Shown: in pieces, positions 3,672 through 22,880 of the stretch
Layout: every line of letters begins with the position of its first letter
Numbering within the stretch: the stretch's first letter is position 1
DNA from: a virus
Taxonomy: Duplodnaviria; Heunggongvirae; Uroviricota; Caudoviricetes
Strand: one strand, 5' to 3'
DNA length: 23,462 bases
IMG/VR virus record: IMGVR_UViG_2698536369_000027
Coordinates: 1 to 23,462 of that record
Position numbers and translations under genes: made by a program
The notes under the pieces: generated by a model
Told to the model about the DNA's origin: nothing
Databases searched by the model: none
Seen by the model: the letters and a program-made list of their open reading frames with translations, nothing else

Positions 3672-3733
3672 ATCAATAATACCTCGTAAGTTTTGTTGAT
3701 ACCGAAGCCCTGACTGTTCCCGCAGTTGGGGCT

Positions 3734-3955
3734 TCACTGTTTTTGTAAGTCACTGTAGCTATAAAGCCACTGACCACTCATTTTTGATTTGATTGACTCT
3801 ACTGAGTCACGGCAAGGAATGATTCCGCCTGACATCATTCTGATCTCCGTAAATTCACCACTCCTTATCGATTCAATGCCATCAATGTTAACTAAAGATT
3901 TACCTCTACCAAGTGCATTCTCATAGCCAATCTCATCAACCTCAATAAACCTCAT
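3734..3955 (-). CDS. Hypothetical 73-aa protein, translationally coupled to arc
   Basis: ATG 3953-3955 overlaps the arc stop codon (ATGA-type overlap); its own stop overlaps the GTG of the downstream ORF; no recognisable domain. Confidence 0.5.
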
Positions 3956-4123: not shown

Positions 4124-4146
4124 TATGGGTCCACCGTGAACCTATT
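4124..4146 (-). promoter_or_regulatory. Mnt operator-like palindrome
   Basis: Minus-sense AGGTTCACGGTGGACCC, one mismatch from the P22 Mnt operator core GGTCCACGGTGGACC as I recall it; lies between the Pant -10 and the arc start. Confidence 0.6.
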
Positions 4147-4149
4147 GAG

Positions 4150-4178
4150 AATATAGTAGAGTGCTTCTATCATGTCAA
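4150..4178 (-). promoter_or_regulatory. Pant-like promoter with embedded Arc operator
   Basis: Minus-sense TTGACA - 17 nt - TATATT; the spacer plus flanks read ATGATAGAAGCACTCTACTAT, which matches the 21-bp P22 Arc operator from memory. Confidence 0.75.
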
Positions 4179-4200: not shown

Positions 4201-4455
4201 ATGGCTAGAGACGATCCGCACTTTAACTTCCGTATGCCTTTGGAAGTAAGAGAAAAATTGAAATTAAGAGCAGAGGCTAACGGAAGGTCAATGAACTCTG
4301 AGTTATTACAAATCGTTCAGGATGCTCTCTCAAAGCCATCATCAATTGTAGGCTATCGAGACGAAGCTGAGCGAGTCGCGGATGAGCAATCTGACGTTGT
4401 TAAGAAGATGGTCTTTGAAACGCTGAAAAATATTTATAGCAAAAGTAAGTTATAG
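4201..4455 (+). CDS. mnt: Mnt repressor (maintenance of lysogeny; represses Pant)
   Basis: 84-aa translation MARDDPHFNFRMPLEVREKLKLRAEANGRSMNSELLQIVQDALSKP... is near-identical to P22 Mnt from memory; divergent from arc. Confidence 0.9.
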   Translation: MARDDPHFNFRMPLEVREKLKLRAEANGRSMNSELLQIVQDALSKPSSIVGYRDEAERVADEQSDVVKKMVFETLKNIYSKSKL

Positions 4456-4504: not shown

Positions 4505-5224
4505 ATGAAAAAAAGCAATGGACTCACATTAAAACTTGACGGAACCACCCCTGGCCAGCTGTCAATGGCTAAGTTGGTCAAGTATATGTCTGCTCTCGTA
4601 GATCTATACGGTTCTGCAGATTCTGTTCACTTCGACTGTGTAAGTGAAGGATCGGCTGACTTAAATGCATGGGTCGATAATGATATTTGTTATAACGCTG
4701 TCATAGCAAGGGCCTCTCTCTCAGCCAAAGAGAAATCACCCGCGTATCAAAAAATTGTTAATTTACTGGAACATGATGGTTTTTCAGCGAAACTACTCGG
4801 ACGAAACCACTCAACCATTATCGCATTCCCGCGAGTAAAAAAGGAGCCAATCCCTTTACTCATAACAAAAACATCAGAAGTTCAAGGAAGGCTATACAGT
4901 GTTGGCGGAAAAGACAACTCAATACCTGTGCGTATTGAGGGAGCCAACGGTGAAACATTCAAGTGCGAGGCAACCCCTGATTTGGCGGCAGCTCTTGGGT
5001 CCCATCTATTCAAATATATTAGGGTTAAAGGAGATGGGTGCTGGGAAAAAAAGAACAACAAATGGGAGCTAAAGAAACTAAAAATAACTTCATTTGTATT
5101 GCTCAAAAAATCATCACTCAAGGATGCTATTAATGCTATCAAGCAAGTTCCTGGAGATCAGTGGTCCGAGGAACGCGATGTTGATTCAATCCTTAGGACT
5201 CTGAGGAAGATAAATTGCGAGTAA
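4505..5224 (+). CDS. Hypothetical 239-aa protein, first gene of the cargo cassette and partner of the PIN nuclease
   Basis: ATG at 4505 is the first start codon after an in-frame stop; no Walker A, HEPN or other motif seen; AT-rich with K-rich C-terminal third; stop overlaps the downstream PIN gene by 10 nt. Confidence 0.6.
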   Translation: MKKSNGLTLKLDGTTPGQLSMAKLVKYMSALVDLYGSADSVHFDCVSEGSADLNAWVDNDICYNAVIARASLSAKEKSPAYQKIVNLLEHDGFSAKLLGRNHSTIIAFPRVKKEPIPLLITKTSEVQGRLYSVGGKDNSIPVRIEGANGETFKCEATPDLAAALGSHLFKYIRVKGDGCWEKKNNKWELKKLKITSFVLLKKSSLKDAINAIKQVPGDQWSEERDVDSILRTLRKINCE

Positions 5225-5763
5225 TTTTAGATACCAATATTCTGGTATACCTACTATCAGATATAGAACACGATTATAGATTATCTGACCCTATACTTGG
5301 TTCTGAGATTCCAGATGCCAAAAGAAGAGCAGAAGCTCTTGTTGATCGAATAGATAACAAGAACGGGACAATCATCGTTCCAACTCCTGTATTGGCGGAG
5401 TTTTTAGTTGGAATCCATAAAGATTACCAACAAGAAAAACTGAATGTTATCAAATCGTTATCGTGCTTCGAAACTGTATCATTTGATGAGTTGGCTGCTA
5501 TTGAATGCGCATCGATACCAACATTAAAAGAATTAAGGAAAATTAGCACAGAAGGTACAGCAAACAAAATTAAGTTTGACAGACAAATAATAGCAATTGC
5601 AAGAGCAATTAATGCTGACGAGGTATGGACTCATGATAAGGGAGTGTTTGAGCGTTGCAAAAGTCTCAATATTCCTGTGTTCACATTATCATCAATAGAA
5701 CCAATTCCGGTTCAAAGTCTCATGGAGTTCTTACACGATTCAGACGATCAGAGATTACACTAA
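5215..5763 (+). CDS. PIN-domain nuclease (VapC-like fold, 182 aa)
   Basis: TTG start at 5215 with GAGGAAGA RBS 5-7 nt upstream; N-terminus RVILDTNILV is a classic PIN beta1 motif; candidate acidic residues D6, E62 (LAEFLVG), D122 (KFDRQIIAIARA), D141 (WTHDKG). Confidence 0.7.
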   Translation: MRVILDTNILVYLLSDIEHDYRLSDPILGSEIPDAKRRAEALVDRIDNKNGTIIVPTPVLAEFLVGIHKDYQQEKLNVIKSLSCFETVSFDELAAIECASIPTLKELRKISTEGTANKIKFDRQIIAIARAINADEVWTHDKGVFERCKSLNIPVFTLSSIEPIPVQSLMEFLHDSDDQRLH

Positions 5764-5890
5764 AATATAATTTTTATGCATCCGTGATAATTACATCCGT
5801 CACTGATACATAAAGCTATAGCCAAAAGTGGACAAACCTTTATCTCACTCCAAACCATCTGGTATCCTGCTAAAAACTAAGGAGGTTGGT

Positions 5891-6280
5891 GTGAAGCAAT
5901 TTCTTGCTGCTATGTTCTTATTCATATCTTTTGGGGCTACAGCAGAGTGCTGGGTCGTTGGAGATATGCGCGGAATAAGCTATTCAGAACGAAATAATTT
6001 CCATCCGGAAGAAGATGGTTTTAGTGGAACATTCATCATTAAGACAAGCGGTGAAGATGCCAGCATCACATATTCTGGGACAGATGCGGGTGGCATGGCT
6101 TACAAAGCATTGTCTAAAAACTCCATCATAGGAATCGGCGCGAATGGCGAAACTCAACGCGTTATCGACTCATGGGTAATACATCCTACTGGAACAGTTT
6201 TAATGTCAAAAACCATTTCCGGTTATGGAAATATGGATTCAACCAAAGCTTTTGTTGGAAAAGTAAAAAGAAAATGTTAG
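5891..6280 (+). CDS. Small exported protein with N-terminal Sec-type signal peptide (~129 aa)
   Basis: GTG at 5891 preceded by AGGAGG with 5-nt spacing; N-terminus VKQFLAAMFLFISFGATAE is a hydrophobic signal peptide with a likely A-x-A-type cleavage site; the ORF-track start at 5828 is GTG without an RBS. Confidence 0.6.
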   Translation: MKQFLAAMFLFISFGATAECWVVGDMRGISYSERNNFHPEEDGFSGTFIIKTSGEDASITYSGTDAGGMAYKALSKNSIIGIGANGETQRVIDSWVIHPTGTVLMSKTISGYGNMDSTKAFVGKVKRKC

Positions 6281-6304
6281 CGATTGAATCCAATTTCCCA
6301 TACG

Positions 6305-8215
6305 TTACTGCTGTGTTGCCTCAGTAACAAACAGCGGCCTGACGGCATTTGCAGCGTTACTTAACGCTCTTTCATAGGCTGGCGTTCCAGCTTTAGTGTT
6401 TGCCAGACGCAAGAGCGCATTCCTTGCTGCTTTGGACTCGTACAAGCGCATGATTGCACCGAAACCAGCTTCAAGCGCCAGTGTTGCCCCAAGAGTCGCA
6501 GTTGCGCCAATCGTTCTAATCCTGTTAGCTTGCGATTGTCCTGTCTGTGTTACTACATTTGCGGCGTCCGACCTTGCTGTTTGCTGTAGAACTTCATGAA
6601 GAGCATCAAGCTCTTTCATGTGTCTCCCACTGAATATCGTGTTATAGATCTGACCGTCAGATTGCGACTTCAACTTATTTAACTCGGTAAGAAATTTTGT
6701 TGGCGAGTCTCCTGCTTTTTCTGCAATCTTGCTAATATAAGCAGCACGCATAGCGTTCTTTCCATCTTCACTAAGAGCAGGCCATATCCTCTTAATATCT
6801 GATGGTTTTCTGCTGAATACAACACTGTTTATTAGCTCTGGAGTAAACTCTTTTTTAGCTTTGTTGAGATTATTCGCAATCCTTTTATTGAGAACTTTAT
6901 TGAAAACGTTGGAGTAGTCAGAGTTTGCTTTGACGTATCTGGCGGCCTCTCCAGCCCCCAAATACCGCGCTGCGTTATTCCTCAAATCTGCCCCCATTGC
7001 CCTCTCCACGGCATCAGTTGCGGCTTTCGCGCTATTAGGAAAAACCATGGCATCTCCCTGAATACTTTCCCTCAAGGCTGACCGCAACTCTCTCAATAGA
7101 CCAAAATCTATATCTGGTTTAGCAAGTTCTTCTCGCAAATCGGATAACCCGCGAATCAAATCCTTATTTGCCACTTTCCCAAGCCTGTTAGCTCTGGTAA
7201 GTACGTTGTCGATAACCTTAATAGATTTTGATGTGTCAACAGGTGTGTCTCCCATTTTGGTTGTAATGTCTTCAATAACGCTTCCGGCCGAATCCTTCCT
7301 TGACTTCAGAGAACCATACAGATCGTCAACAACAACTGATGGGCTATATTCACCATATTTCTCAAGCTGTTTTTTAACTAGCTGACTTCTTTTTGCATAC
7401 TGCTCCGCTCGCTTTGAGCCTGTCCCGAGCAAAGCCCCCTCGGCATCCTGAGTAAGGCCGCGAGTGAAAGCATTTTTCGGCGGGATAACATCAGATGTCA
7501 TTGGTGTCACGCCCATCGATTCTGATGTGGCAATTTTCTTCGCCACTTCTGGTGCAATATCACCTTTAAAGGCAGTTATTCCACGCTCAAGCCCTTTTGC
7601 AACAGTATTAACAGCACCACCTGTTAGCATGCCAACACCTATATCTGTTGCCAGTTTTCCCGCATCATTTTTCTCACTGTTTGCGGCGAGCGATCCGACT
7701 GCGTTTTCTGCCAGAAGACGGGCTGCGCCTTGAGTAATTCGACCAGCAAGTGTTGGCGCCTGAGTTGAAGCACCGCCAACGCCAACAGTAGCCAGGTAAG
7801 GCAATGCCTCCGCAAACACCCTACCTTCTGTCGTTTGTGGAGTCAGAGCACCTTGCTGAAGTCCAAACGCCTGCTCTAATCCCTGAGTTGTTACTCGTGG
7901 CGCTGGTTGATATGTTCCATCACCAATACCGAGTTTACCGCCAGCCCATGCTGCCGCGCTTGTTACAGCATCGGCAACTGATGCCGGTATGTTTGCCACG
8001 TTTACGCCAGCCTGCACCAGTCCGCGACCAGTCTCTTTTACTGCCTCGCCAAGGTCAGACATAAATCCATCTTGCTGTTCTAAAGGCTGCTCTTGATTCT
8101 GAGTTGGTGGATTACTGGAAGACAGCATCCTAGCAATGCGGCGCGCGCCATCAGTATCACCTGCAGCATCAGCATTCCTTAACGCCGTCATCAATTGTTC
8201 ACGACTATAGGCCAT
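6305..8215 (-). CDS. 16: Ejection (injection) protein, P22 gp16-like
   Basis: 636-aa ORF in the conserved P22 order 7-20-16; start overlaps the gp20 stop; Ala/Gly-rich as in P22 E-proteins. Confidence 0.8.
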   Translation of the reverse strand: MAYSREQLMTALRNADAAGDTDGARRIARMLSSSNPPTQNQEQPLEQQDGFMSDLGEAVKETGRGLVQAGVNVANIPASVADAVTSAAAWAGGKLGIGDGTYQPAPRVTTQGLEQAFGLQQGALTPQTTEGRVFAEALPYLATVGVGGASTQAPTLAGRITQGAARLLAENAVGSLAANSEKNDAGKLATDIGVGMLTGGAVNTVAKGLERGITAFKGDIAPEVAKKIATSESMGVTPMTSDVIPPKNAFTRGLTQDAEGALLGTGSKRAEQYAKRSQLVKKQLEKYGEYSPSVVVDDLYGSLKSRKDSAGSVIEDITTKMGDTPVDTSKSIKVIDNVLTRANRLGKVANKDLIRGLSDLREELAKPDIDFGLLRELRSALRESIQGDAMVFPNSAKAATDAVERAMGADLRNNAARYLGAGEAARYVKANSDYSNVFNKVLNKRIANNLNKAKKEFTPELINSVVFSRKPSDIKRIWPALSEDGKNAMRAAYISKIAEKAGDSPTKFLTELNKLKSQSDGQIYNTIFSGRHMKELDALHEVLQQTARSDAANVVTQTGQSQANRIRTIGATATLGATLALEAGFGAIMRLYESKAARNALLRLANTKAGTPAYERALSNAANAVRPLFVTEATQQ

Positions 8216-22724: not shown

Positions 22725-22800
22725 TGGTGCTGGTTAACGGACTTGAACCGCTACCCATTCGCTTACAAGGCGACCGCTCTACCATTGGAGCTAAACCAGC
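22725..22800 (-). tRNA. tRNA-Thr (anticodon UGU)
   Basis: Minus-sense 76 nt GCTGGTT-TA-GCTC-CAATGGTA-GAGC-G-GTCGC-CTTGTAA-GCGAA-TGGGT-AGCGG-TTCAAGT-CCGTT-AACCAGC-A-CCA: 7-bp acceptor stem, canonical D and T arms, anticodon loop with UGU, encoded CCA. Confidence 0.7.
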
Positions 22801-22805
22801 ATGTT

Positions 22806-22880
22806 TGGCGGGGCAGCGTGGACTCGAACCACGATAAGAAGGTTAACAGCCTTCCGTAATGACCTTTATACGACTGACCC
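22806..22880 (-). tRNA. tRNA-Asn (anticodon GUU), possibly degenerate
   Basis: Minus-sense 75 nt with anticodon arm GAAGG-CTGTTAA-CCTTC, T-arm CGTGG-TTCGAGT-CCACG and 3' GCCA; one mismatch each in the acceptor and D stems; 5 nt from the tRNA-Thr. Confidence 0.5.

Follow-up and report, generated by a model that had tools for sequence, protein, structure and literature searches.

A two-gene cassette of a P22-like Escherichia coli prophage pairs a predicted VapC-like PIN nuclease with a previously unannotated protein family of predicted OB fold

The DNA considered here, IMG/VR record IMGVR_UViG_2698536369_000027 (positions 1 to 23,462; this whole 23,462-nt stretch is called the window below), is a portion of a P22-like prophage of Escherichia coli. 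Between the repressor gene mnt and a gene-16-like ejection protein gene it carries a 1.26-kb cassette of two open reading frames (ORFs), referred to as A (4505-5224) and B (5215-5763). An earlier interpretation made from the letters alone (the sequence-only reading) had described a two-gene plus-strand cassette lying in the slot where P22 carries sieA, and both the ORF coordinates and the P22 gene order agree with that description. According to homology searches and structure prediction, the pair is a candidate PIN-effector module whose partner protein belongs to a previously unannotated family with a putative OB fold. The core elements are the following:

4505-5224, plus strand: gene A, ATG start, 239 amino acids (aa), basic (pI 9.2), member of a family without annotation, near-obligate partner of a PIN protein
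5203-5207, plus strand: GAGGA Shine-Dalgarno sequence of B, within the 3' end of A and 7 nt before the TTG, read directly from the letters
5215-5763, plus strand: gene B, TTG start, 182 aa, acidic (pI 5.1), predicted VapC-like PIN-domain nuclease

The stop codon of A (TAA) occupies 5222-5224, and the two genes therefore overlap by 10 nt. The TTG start of B, its GAGGA ribosome-binding site and its position 10 nt inside the end of A had already been proposed, and RefSeq agrees, annotating the same two coding sequences (A as 'hypothetical protein' WP_000749484.1, B as 'PIN domain-containing protein' WP_001263856.1). B starts at TTG in 5 of 7 diverse loci, i.e., the weak start is conserved.

B matches the Pfam PIN family PF01850 with an E value of 4e-10 and 40.8 bits (gathering score 23.6), and its N-terminus reads MRVILDTNILV. 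Five acidic residues, D6, E62, E97, D122, and D141, do not vary among 36 homologues that reach down to 29% identity, nor across 11 diverse linked A-B pairs. R38 and an F-D-R-Q-I motif are invariant in the 36-homologue alignment, too. The PIN hallmarks and the four candidate acidic positions named from the letters alone (D6, E62, D122, and D141) are thus confirmed, with E97 as an additional one:

5230-5232, plus strand: codon of D6, PIN acidic residue 1, invariant
5398-5400, plus strand: codon of E62, PIN acidic residue 2, invariant
5503-5505, plus strand: codon of E97, additional acidic residue, invariant
5578-5580, plus strand: codon of D122, PIN acidic residue 3, invariant, inside the F-D-R-Q-I motif
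5635-5637, plus strand: codon of D141, PIN acidic residue 4, invariant

In its AlphaFold2 model (predicted local distance difference test score, pLDDT, 83.9; predicted template modelling score 0.78), B shows the three-layer alpha/beta/alpha PIN fold. The top Foldseek matches of this model are the VapC toxins 3zvk, 5ecw, and 4chg (E values from 2e-6 to 1e-5, probability up to 1.00), which include R. felis VapC2, Shigella VapC, and M. tuberculosis VapC15, while protein-only RNase P (HARP) ranks below them. Neither a profile search nor a single-sequence search of B against solved structures returned a match, so the similarity to VapC rests on Pfam and on the fold comparison. NCBI labels many homologues of B as VapC family toxins; the scores of B itself against the NCBIfam VapC models are 27.1, 19.9, and 14.8 bits, with cut-offs of 140, 73.6, and 80, respectively. 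B also matches phrog_21691 and is about 50 aa longer than typical VapCs, owing to an insertion between D6 and E62 and to a C-terminal tail. With its acidic residues invariant and its predicted fold matching VapC, B appears to be a divergent VapC-like PIN protein with an intact active site and putative nuclease activity.

As for A, no match was found in Pfam, NCBIfam, or PADLOC, and its sole family match is phrog_19868, of unknown function; 30 diverse members of its family gave no consistent Pfam match either. An exhaustive profile search retrieved 1,560 representatives of 50%-identity clusters at E ≤1e-3 and 788 at E ≤1e-10, nearly all of them 230-260 aa long and aligned end to end. Judged by these alignments, A is the type of a large, uniform family without annotation. 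As far as the sequence goes, the earlier statement that no motif can be assigned to the 239-aa partner is borne out, and structure prediction adds the OB fold. The AlphaFold2 model of A (pLDDT 82.7) consists of three parts, namely an N-terminal domain, a barrel, and a tail:

4505-4825, plus strand: N-terminal alpha/beta domain of A, residues 1-107, modelled as b-a-b-b-a-a-b-b
4856-5101, plus strand: predicted OB-fold barrel of A, residues 118-199, b1-b2-b3-helix-b4-b5, net charge about +5
5117-5221, plus strand: helical tail of A, residues 205-239, pLDDT about 51-56, proposed PIN-binding element

Residues 1-107 are covered by no fold-search match; P16, L24, Y27, G36, G49, and D91 are conserved there. 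For residues 118-199, OB-fold topology was obtained with two independent fold-comparison methods applied to the predicted structure, and the matches are OB folds binding single-stranded DNA, RNA, or tRNA anticodons. The modelled barrel would share its five strands and the helix between strands 3 and 4 with SSB, PriB, RPA32, Stn1, and the anticodon-binding domains of class IIb aminoacyl-tRNA synthetases. This similarity, however, is confined to the fold (7-20% identity, and no Pfam SSB or tRNA_anti match for A), and, in contrast to these binders, the barrel of A is set between an unrelated N-terminal domain and the tail and is dedicated to a PIN partner. Conservation in the tail reaches at least 90% for W220 and R234 among 30 diverse members, and all of the 11 linked pairs have R234. 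Such conservation within a poorly modelled segment is the pattern of a segment that folds upon a partner. A kelch-repeat-like nature of A was also considered, the sequence search of solved structures having matched only kelch-repeat designer proteins. It was rejected as a motif coincidence: the match consists of a 15-residue motif (GRLYsVGGkD) summed over six blades, and no single stretch is significant.

The association of the two genes was examined in 68 loci drawn from viral and genome collections and from individual look-ups. The closer alignment A1 served as the A query, and the set accordingly leans toward Gammaproteobacteria. A B-family PIN gene directly follows A in 67 of the 68 loci, with junctions from −52 to +9 nt, and no A gene with an effector other than a B-family PIN was encountered among them. 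The junction is clade-specific: Enterobacterales have −10 nt, most Pseudomonas loci have +1 or +2 nt, and the remaining loci have +3 to +9 nt or apparent overlaps of up to −52 nt, the largest of which are probably due to first-start ORF calling. Seen from the other side, an unannotated gene encoding 232-251 aa lies directly upstream of all five PIN homologues that were looked up, which are 32-53% identical to B, and for the three most distant of these loci profile comparison identifies the upstream gene as an A homologue with a probability of 99.7-99.9%. Pairwise identities of A and B across the 11 linked pairs are also strongly correlated (Mantel r 0.93, with 0 of 5,000 permutations as high). 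The linkage is therefore near-obligate, and the genes form one unit.

The exception is locus L079 of Marinobacter fuscus (5716-6400), where the PIN gene is truncated after about 50 residues and A is intact. In L068 of Pseudomonas sp. RGM2987 (5713-6300), counted among the 67, the PIN gene is frameshifted and A is again intact. Decay of the PIN gene with retention of A is the asymmetry that would be expected if the PIN protein were toxic, although it concerns two loci only and the search was seeded with A.

Two further observations concern the pair itself. In a metagenomic representative, P0213 (319 aa), an A-family sequence runs on into about 75 N-terminal residues of a B-family PIN (...MSVVFDTSALV...); this is either a genuine fusion of A with the PIN protein or an artefact of assembly or of a contig end. 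Pantoea latae (NZ_MWUE01000022.1) carries two divergent A-PIN pairs about 12 kb apart (L063 and L066; L027 and L043 represent the same region), with A copies 70% and 57% identical to E. coli A, one of which adjoins a gpJ-like tail tip gene.

Regarding its distribution, the pair occurs in 33 of 5,426 complete E. coli genomes, always on the chromosome and at least 99.5% identical, and no DNA-level match was found on plasmids. There are 535 E. coli genomes with a related mnt/gene-16 region, and the pair is present in 33 of these; the roughly 500 others with mnt or gene-16 flanks have different cargo in the slot, including a P63C-domain protein, a Rap1a/Tai-like protein, or strings of small ORFs, and in P22 the slot holds ORF59a and sieA. 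The pair is thus accessory and does not belong to a core gene set of P22-like phages. Its E. coli copies lie in P22-like prophages at no fewer than two integration sites, and some of these prophages are visibly degraded. In L001 (20762-22783) a 100%-identical pair accompanies a pseudogenised capsid gene abutting the early genes, and in L002 (11942-14469) a pair that is also 100% identical accompanies an ISEc52 insertion in the ejection-protein genes; in both, the cassette has been retained during prophage decay. Among 11 loci of the E. coli type, mnt-A-B is 99-100% identical and the sequence 3' of B varies or is unrelated, which indicates a mosaic unit with a recombination boundary just after B.

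Beyond E. coli the family is spread over Enterobacterales, Pseudomonas, Marinobacter, Halomonas, and uncultured bacteria. An S24 cI-like repressor gene immediately precedes the pair, on the same strand, in Pseudomonas prophages, in a Providencia prophage, and in the sequenced temperate P. aeruginosa phage Ostro. Among 33 non-redundant clusters an S24 repressor is found upstream in 15 (as the immediate gene in 13 and as the second gene in 2), and other upstream genes encode Mnt, a regulator with an HTH domain only, or DinI. Several copies outside prophages have neighbours of the defence or mobile-element type. In Marinobacter the pair is located between PDC-M66B (a PADLOC candidate, DUF3037) and the HsdS/HsdM genes of a Type I restriction-modification (R-M) system; in Marinobacterium it follows an Mrr-like Type IV nuclease, and in Pectobacterium it precedes a SoFic-like Fic protein. 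On the question raised earlier, whether the pair co-occurs in defence islands, the R-M, Mrr, and Fic neighbours indicate that some copies do. In the Marinobacter excellens locus (L073, 4021-4902, minus strand), the DUF3037 protein matching PDC-M66B is the immediate neighbour of the pair, and DUF3037 is among the domains newly linked to defence, in the system DS-6 of the DefensePredictor study (PMC13092281). Further copies adjoin P4-like primases, yicC, or tail-fibre genes, the last being a typical site for morons. Finally, three independent metagenome contigs of an uncultured bacterium (L011-L013, 5251-6528) carry a distant pair between ftsI and murE in the dcw cluster, co-directional and 72 nt after ftsI.

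The surroundings of the cassette in the window suggest how it may be expressed. Two features upstream are relevant:

4145-4173, plus strand: Pmnt-like sigma-70 promoter, TTGAGA-17-TATCAT, matching the consensus at 10 of 12 positions, the probable driver of an mnt-A-B transcript
4201-4455, plus strand: mnt, Arc/Mnt-family repressor gene (Pfam Arc, E = 6e-27; Repressor_Mnt, E = 5e-13), upstream in the same mosaic block

Opposed Pant-like and Pmnt-like promoters lie at 4145-4178. Between the mnt stop (4455) and the start of A (4505) no promoter-like or terminator-like site was found, so a single mnt-A-B transcript is likely. The left flank is an immI region, in which arc and mnt were identified through Pfam. 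The P22 antisense regulator of ant, sar RNA, is matched at 3673-3738 on the plus strand (Rfam, 61.7 bits against a gathering score of 43), which confirms that a complete P22-type immI region adjoins the cassette. Between arc and the antirepressor gene there is a 73-aa ORF (3734-3955, minus strand), for which RefSeq gives 'hypothetical protein' in related prophages; the equivalent position of P22 is without a gene. Within the cassette, an RNA antitoxin or another RNA element was considered and rejected, as neither an Rfam match nor tandem repeats were found there.

In P22 the gene order is mnt(+), ORF59a(+), sieA(+), 16(−). The A-B pair thus occupies the sieA slot in the sieA orientation, replacing ORF59a and sieA. 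On the right, the gene-16-like ejection protein gene and the subsequent virion genes are all on the minus strand, opposite to the pair. The claim that the cassette runs opposite to the flanking structural genes stands for this side, but not for the other, where mnt is co-directional, and a third plus-strand ORF (5891-6280) intervenes before gene 16. Base composition agrees with the earlier remark on AT-richness and long A/T runs: the G+C content of the pair is 39.7% versus 47.9% for the window, within the lowest 3.4% of same-size windows, and 5 of the window's 15 A/T runs of at least 6 bases fall inside it, with 0.8 expected.

An AAGGAGG Shine-Dalgarno sequence of its own precedes the third ORF (given as 5828-6280 in the ORF list), whose N-terminus resembles a signal peptide (MKQFLAAMFLFISFGATA/E). 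Its product belongs with phrog_2651, of unknown function, and has no Pfam match, and ~97% identical DNA is present in the Salmonella phages vB_SemP_Emek and ST-35. Of the 11 E. coli-type loci, a single one has this ORF beside the pair, so it is a separate mosaic module. The same prophage also has two adjacent tRNA genes, tRNA-Thr(UGU) and tRNA-Asn(GUU), at 22725-22880 on the minus strand; it is pure speculation that they might be relevant if the PIN protein were a tRNase like many VapCs.

Among known systems, VapBC is the closest point of reference, and Shigella/Salmonella VapBC, R. felis VapBC2, and N. gonorrhoeae FitAB were used for comparison. The resemblance concerns B, a single-domain PIN protein with four conserved acidic residues whose predicted fold matches VapC best, as well as the layout, with the partner gene first and an overlapping junction. 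Antitoxin tails of the VapB/FitA type occlude the PIN active site, and the conserved, arginine-bearing C-terminal tail of A could act in the same way. The differences are nevertheless considerable. VapB proteins have ~70-90 aa and an AbrB, RHH, Phd, or HTH domain, whereas A has 239 aa, a predicted OB fold, and an N-terminal domain, and none of these four Pfam domain types was found in A or in 30 diverse members of its family. The earlier judgement that the partner is too large for a classical VapB is therefore upheld. An autoregulatory operator upstream of A was likewise looked for, and a simple scan of 10 loci, in which absence is no proof, revealed no conserved inverted repeat. B, for its part, is far below the NCBIfam VapC cut-offs and has no sequence-level match to a solved VapC. 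Since A fails the defining antitoxin features and B the cut-offs of the curated models, the pair is not a strict VapBC member, though it may work like one.

Two validated defence systems combine a PIN protein with another kind of partner. HEC-03 (Payne et al. 2024, 10.1101/2024.01.29.577857) is an anti-phage system of an ABC ATPase and a VapC-like PIN protein. It resembles A-B in having a VapC-like PIN effector with a partner unrelated to VapB; in contrast, A shows neither ATPase features nor a PADLOC match, and HEC-03 is embedded in Hma systems rather than in prophage immunity regions. DS-5 (WP_021513008 and WP_021513009) is a two-gene defence system of E. coli whose first gene encodes an unannotated protein and whose second encodes a PIN protein. 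Its PIN catalytic residues are essential for defence, both proteins are needed, and loss of the partner is not toxic; it reportedly shows no toxin-antitoxin (TA) behaviour (PMC13092281). A-B shares this E. coli two-gene architecture, an unannotated protein followed by a PIN protein, but DS-5A is a DUF5830/AcrIF4-like protein of 166 aa and DS-5B has 376 aa. Identity of the pair with DS-5, raised by the shared layout and a faint PIN_12 match of B, was rejected by profile comparison: hhalign gives a probability of 0.2% for A versus DS-5A and of 3.9% for B versus DS-5B, the latter limited to the DTNIL motif. HEC-03 and DS-5 thus provide precedent for VapC-like effectors with non-VapB partners, but not for an OB-fold partner such as A.

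In its genomic position the cassette resembles RexAB and SieA, being a set of accessory genes directly downstream of, and co-directional with, a lysogeny repressor gene and hence probably lysogen-expressed; the pairs adjacent to S24 repressors occupy the lambda rexAB position. RexAB and SieA effectors, however, are membrane proteins, whereas A-B includes a predicted soluble PIN nuclease and has no PADLOC match. Neither A nor B is similar to SieA (BLASTP E values of 6.8 and 48), with which the genomic slot alone is shared. A validated RexAB-type system of P. putida has the same repressor-adjacent position (PMC12894663).

B has also been flagged by a published model. In Table S10 of the DefensePredictor study WP_001263856.1 is listed among 'uncharacterized clusters' as 'Predicted novel defense gene', with a mean log-odds of 6.81 (range 3.95-8.01, strict cut-off 4) and no homology to known defence proteins (PMC13092281). 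In the supplementary tables of that study that were searched, the protein was not found among the cloned systems (PMC13092281), and the main text of the papers searched names neither WP_000749484.1 nor WP_001263856.1. As far as could be determined, the pair has thus been predicted computationally, and no record of cloning or testing was found. No OB-fold partner of a PIN toxin is described in the literature searched.

The reading that we favour, tentatively and with somewhat less than even confidence, is that A-B is an anti-phage module expressed in the lysogen, in which B is a VapC-like RNase effector and A both inhibits it through the tail and senses infection through the OB fold, with an abortive outcome. 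The cassette would be an accessory (moron) element of the P22-like prophage, with probable expression alongside the Mnt repressor in the lysogen, and would protect the lysogen against other phages, most likely through abortive infection. B would be the effector, a metal-dependent PIN endoribonuclease of the VapC kind. By analogy with VapB and FitA, A may keep B inactive by occluding the PIN site with its conserved C-terminal tail (W220 and R234). The basic OB fold, possibly with the N-terminal domain, would be the sensor, binding infection-linked single-stranded nucleic acid or a phage protein; once bound, A would release or activate B, and cleavage of cellular or phage RNA by B would then halt the infection. 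Co-transcription with mnt, RNase activity, inhibition by the tail, nucleic-acid sensing, and the defence phenotype are all points that we infer. This reading is supported by the PIN identity of B, the predicted basic OB fold of A, the linkage and co-divergence of the genes, and the weak TTG start of B, as well as by the repressor-adjacent and defence-island positions, the accessory distribution, the DefensePredictor result, and the precedent of HEC-03 and DS-5. The sequence-only reading had proposed a candidate abortive-infection, toxin-antitoxin, or exclusion module outside the named families, and this proposal is supported by the invariant PIN acidic residues, the accessory distribution, the linkage and co-divergence, the genomic contexts, the lack of a PADLOC match, and DefensePredictor, the function itself being putative. 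Two of the outcomes that would have refuted it, a defective PIN active site and a core gene set of P22-like phages, were checked and did not apply.

Several results weigh against a defence role of this kind. Classical VapB-style autoregulation is unsupported, since A has no DNA-binding domain and no palindromic operator was seen, and the charges are reversed in comparison with usual type II TA systems, A being basic and B acidic. The dcw-cluster clade has no defence context and is an odd home for a toxin-like module. A search of PADLOC-DB v2.0.0 with A, B, and the third ORF returned no family at E up to 1, and the pair is therefore neither a known nor a candidate system of that release. Overall, about 45% of the cloned DefensePredictor predictions were validated (PMC13092281), and the literature searched, which does not include Brenes & Laub 2025, contains no toxicity, plaque, or RNase data on the pair or its homologues.

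The alternative that survives best, though we consider it unlikely, is that the pair is a defence module that is not TA-like, A being an obligatory positive subunit that recruits the PIN protein to a nucleic-acid substrate through its OB fold. Both proteins would then be required, and deletion of A would abolish defence without releasing toxicity, following the logic of DS-5 and resembling nucleases that combine PIN with OB/TRAM domains. OB folds of the type predicted for A bind single-stranded DNA, RNA, or tRNA anticodons, and the OB domain of A is basic; neither an antitoxin-type DNA-binding domain nor an upstream operator was found for A, and the charge pattern is atypical for type II TA systems. 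DS-5, moreover, requires its PIN protein and a non-antitoxin partner whose loss is not toxic, and linkage and co-divergence fit a holoenzyme equally well. In contrast, the partner-first order, the overlapping junction, and the weak TTG are typical of the control of antitoxin-toxin stoichiometry, the conserved disordered tail of A resembles the toxin-wrapping tails of antitoxins, and the decayed copies have lost the PIN protein and kept A, albeit in two loci only and in a search seeded with A.

A plain addiction pair, i.e., a TA system that stabilises its prophage or island by post-segregational killing and has no anti-phage activity, seems improbable. Such a role would fit the VapC-like PIN effector, many homologues of which NCBI labels as VapC family toxins, the TA-like gene order and coupling, the persistence of 100%-identical pairs in degraded prophages, one with a capsid pseudogene and another with insertion sequences, and non-defence contexts such as the dcw cluster. 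However, B falls below every NCBIfam VapC cut-off (27 bits versus 140), its partner shows none of the features that define VapB, recurrent lysogen-expressed immunity regions and R-M, Mrr, and Fic neighbours are the pattern of defence cargo, and B was independently predicted as a defence gene; addiction and defence are, moreover, not mutually exclusive.

Least probable of all is a role in the phage life cycle, for example, as an RNase with which the phage tunes its lysis-lysogeny switch or processes its transcripts or replication intermediates: repressor adjacency in several unrelated phage lineages (mnt; cI-like S24), the travelling of mnt-A-B as one mosaic unit, and lambda RexA, which occupies an equivalent position and also modulates the bistable switch (PMC12894663), would suit it, but defence islands, the dcw cluster, and the vicinity of yicC hold autonomous pairs that are not part of a phage, the PIN protein is like VapC toxins rather than replication enzymes of the FEN or 5'-nuclease type, and the pair is missing from P22 and from most related prophages (33 of 535 carry it) and is therefore not needed for the life cycle. 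In view of the accessory distribution and of the defence-type contexts, both the addiction and the life-cycle explanations are less likely than the favoured one, in which A-B is a lysogen-expressed anti-phage module.

A broader form of the favoured reading, which we regard as possible but rather doubtful, is that A-B is the founding member of an unnamed, widespread anti-phage system, comprising about 1,560 clusters of A at 50% identity, in which a dedicated OB-fold protein senses infection by way of single-stranded nucleic acid or a protein and directly gates a VapC-like PIN RNase, and which is placed preferentially in prophage immunity operons, where it functionally replaces RexAB or SieA behind cI or Mnt. 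PIN/VapC nucleases are among the most abundant bacterial toxins; to our knowledge, few PIN-based phage-defence systems have been validated, and none of those checked uses an OB-fold partner. If the broader form is true, PIN effectors would gain a new class of sensor, gating by an OB fold. The pair is directly testable, being small and E. coli-borne, with a well-understood Mnt-linked expression context and clear candidate catalytic residues. If defence is confirmed, a new family could be named and thousands of genes annotated, and the result would reveal a replacement of sieA or rexAB in many prophages. Should A prove to be a nucleic-acid-sensing gate, it would also offer a new explanation of how defence modules resembling toxin-antitoxin systems detect infection.

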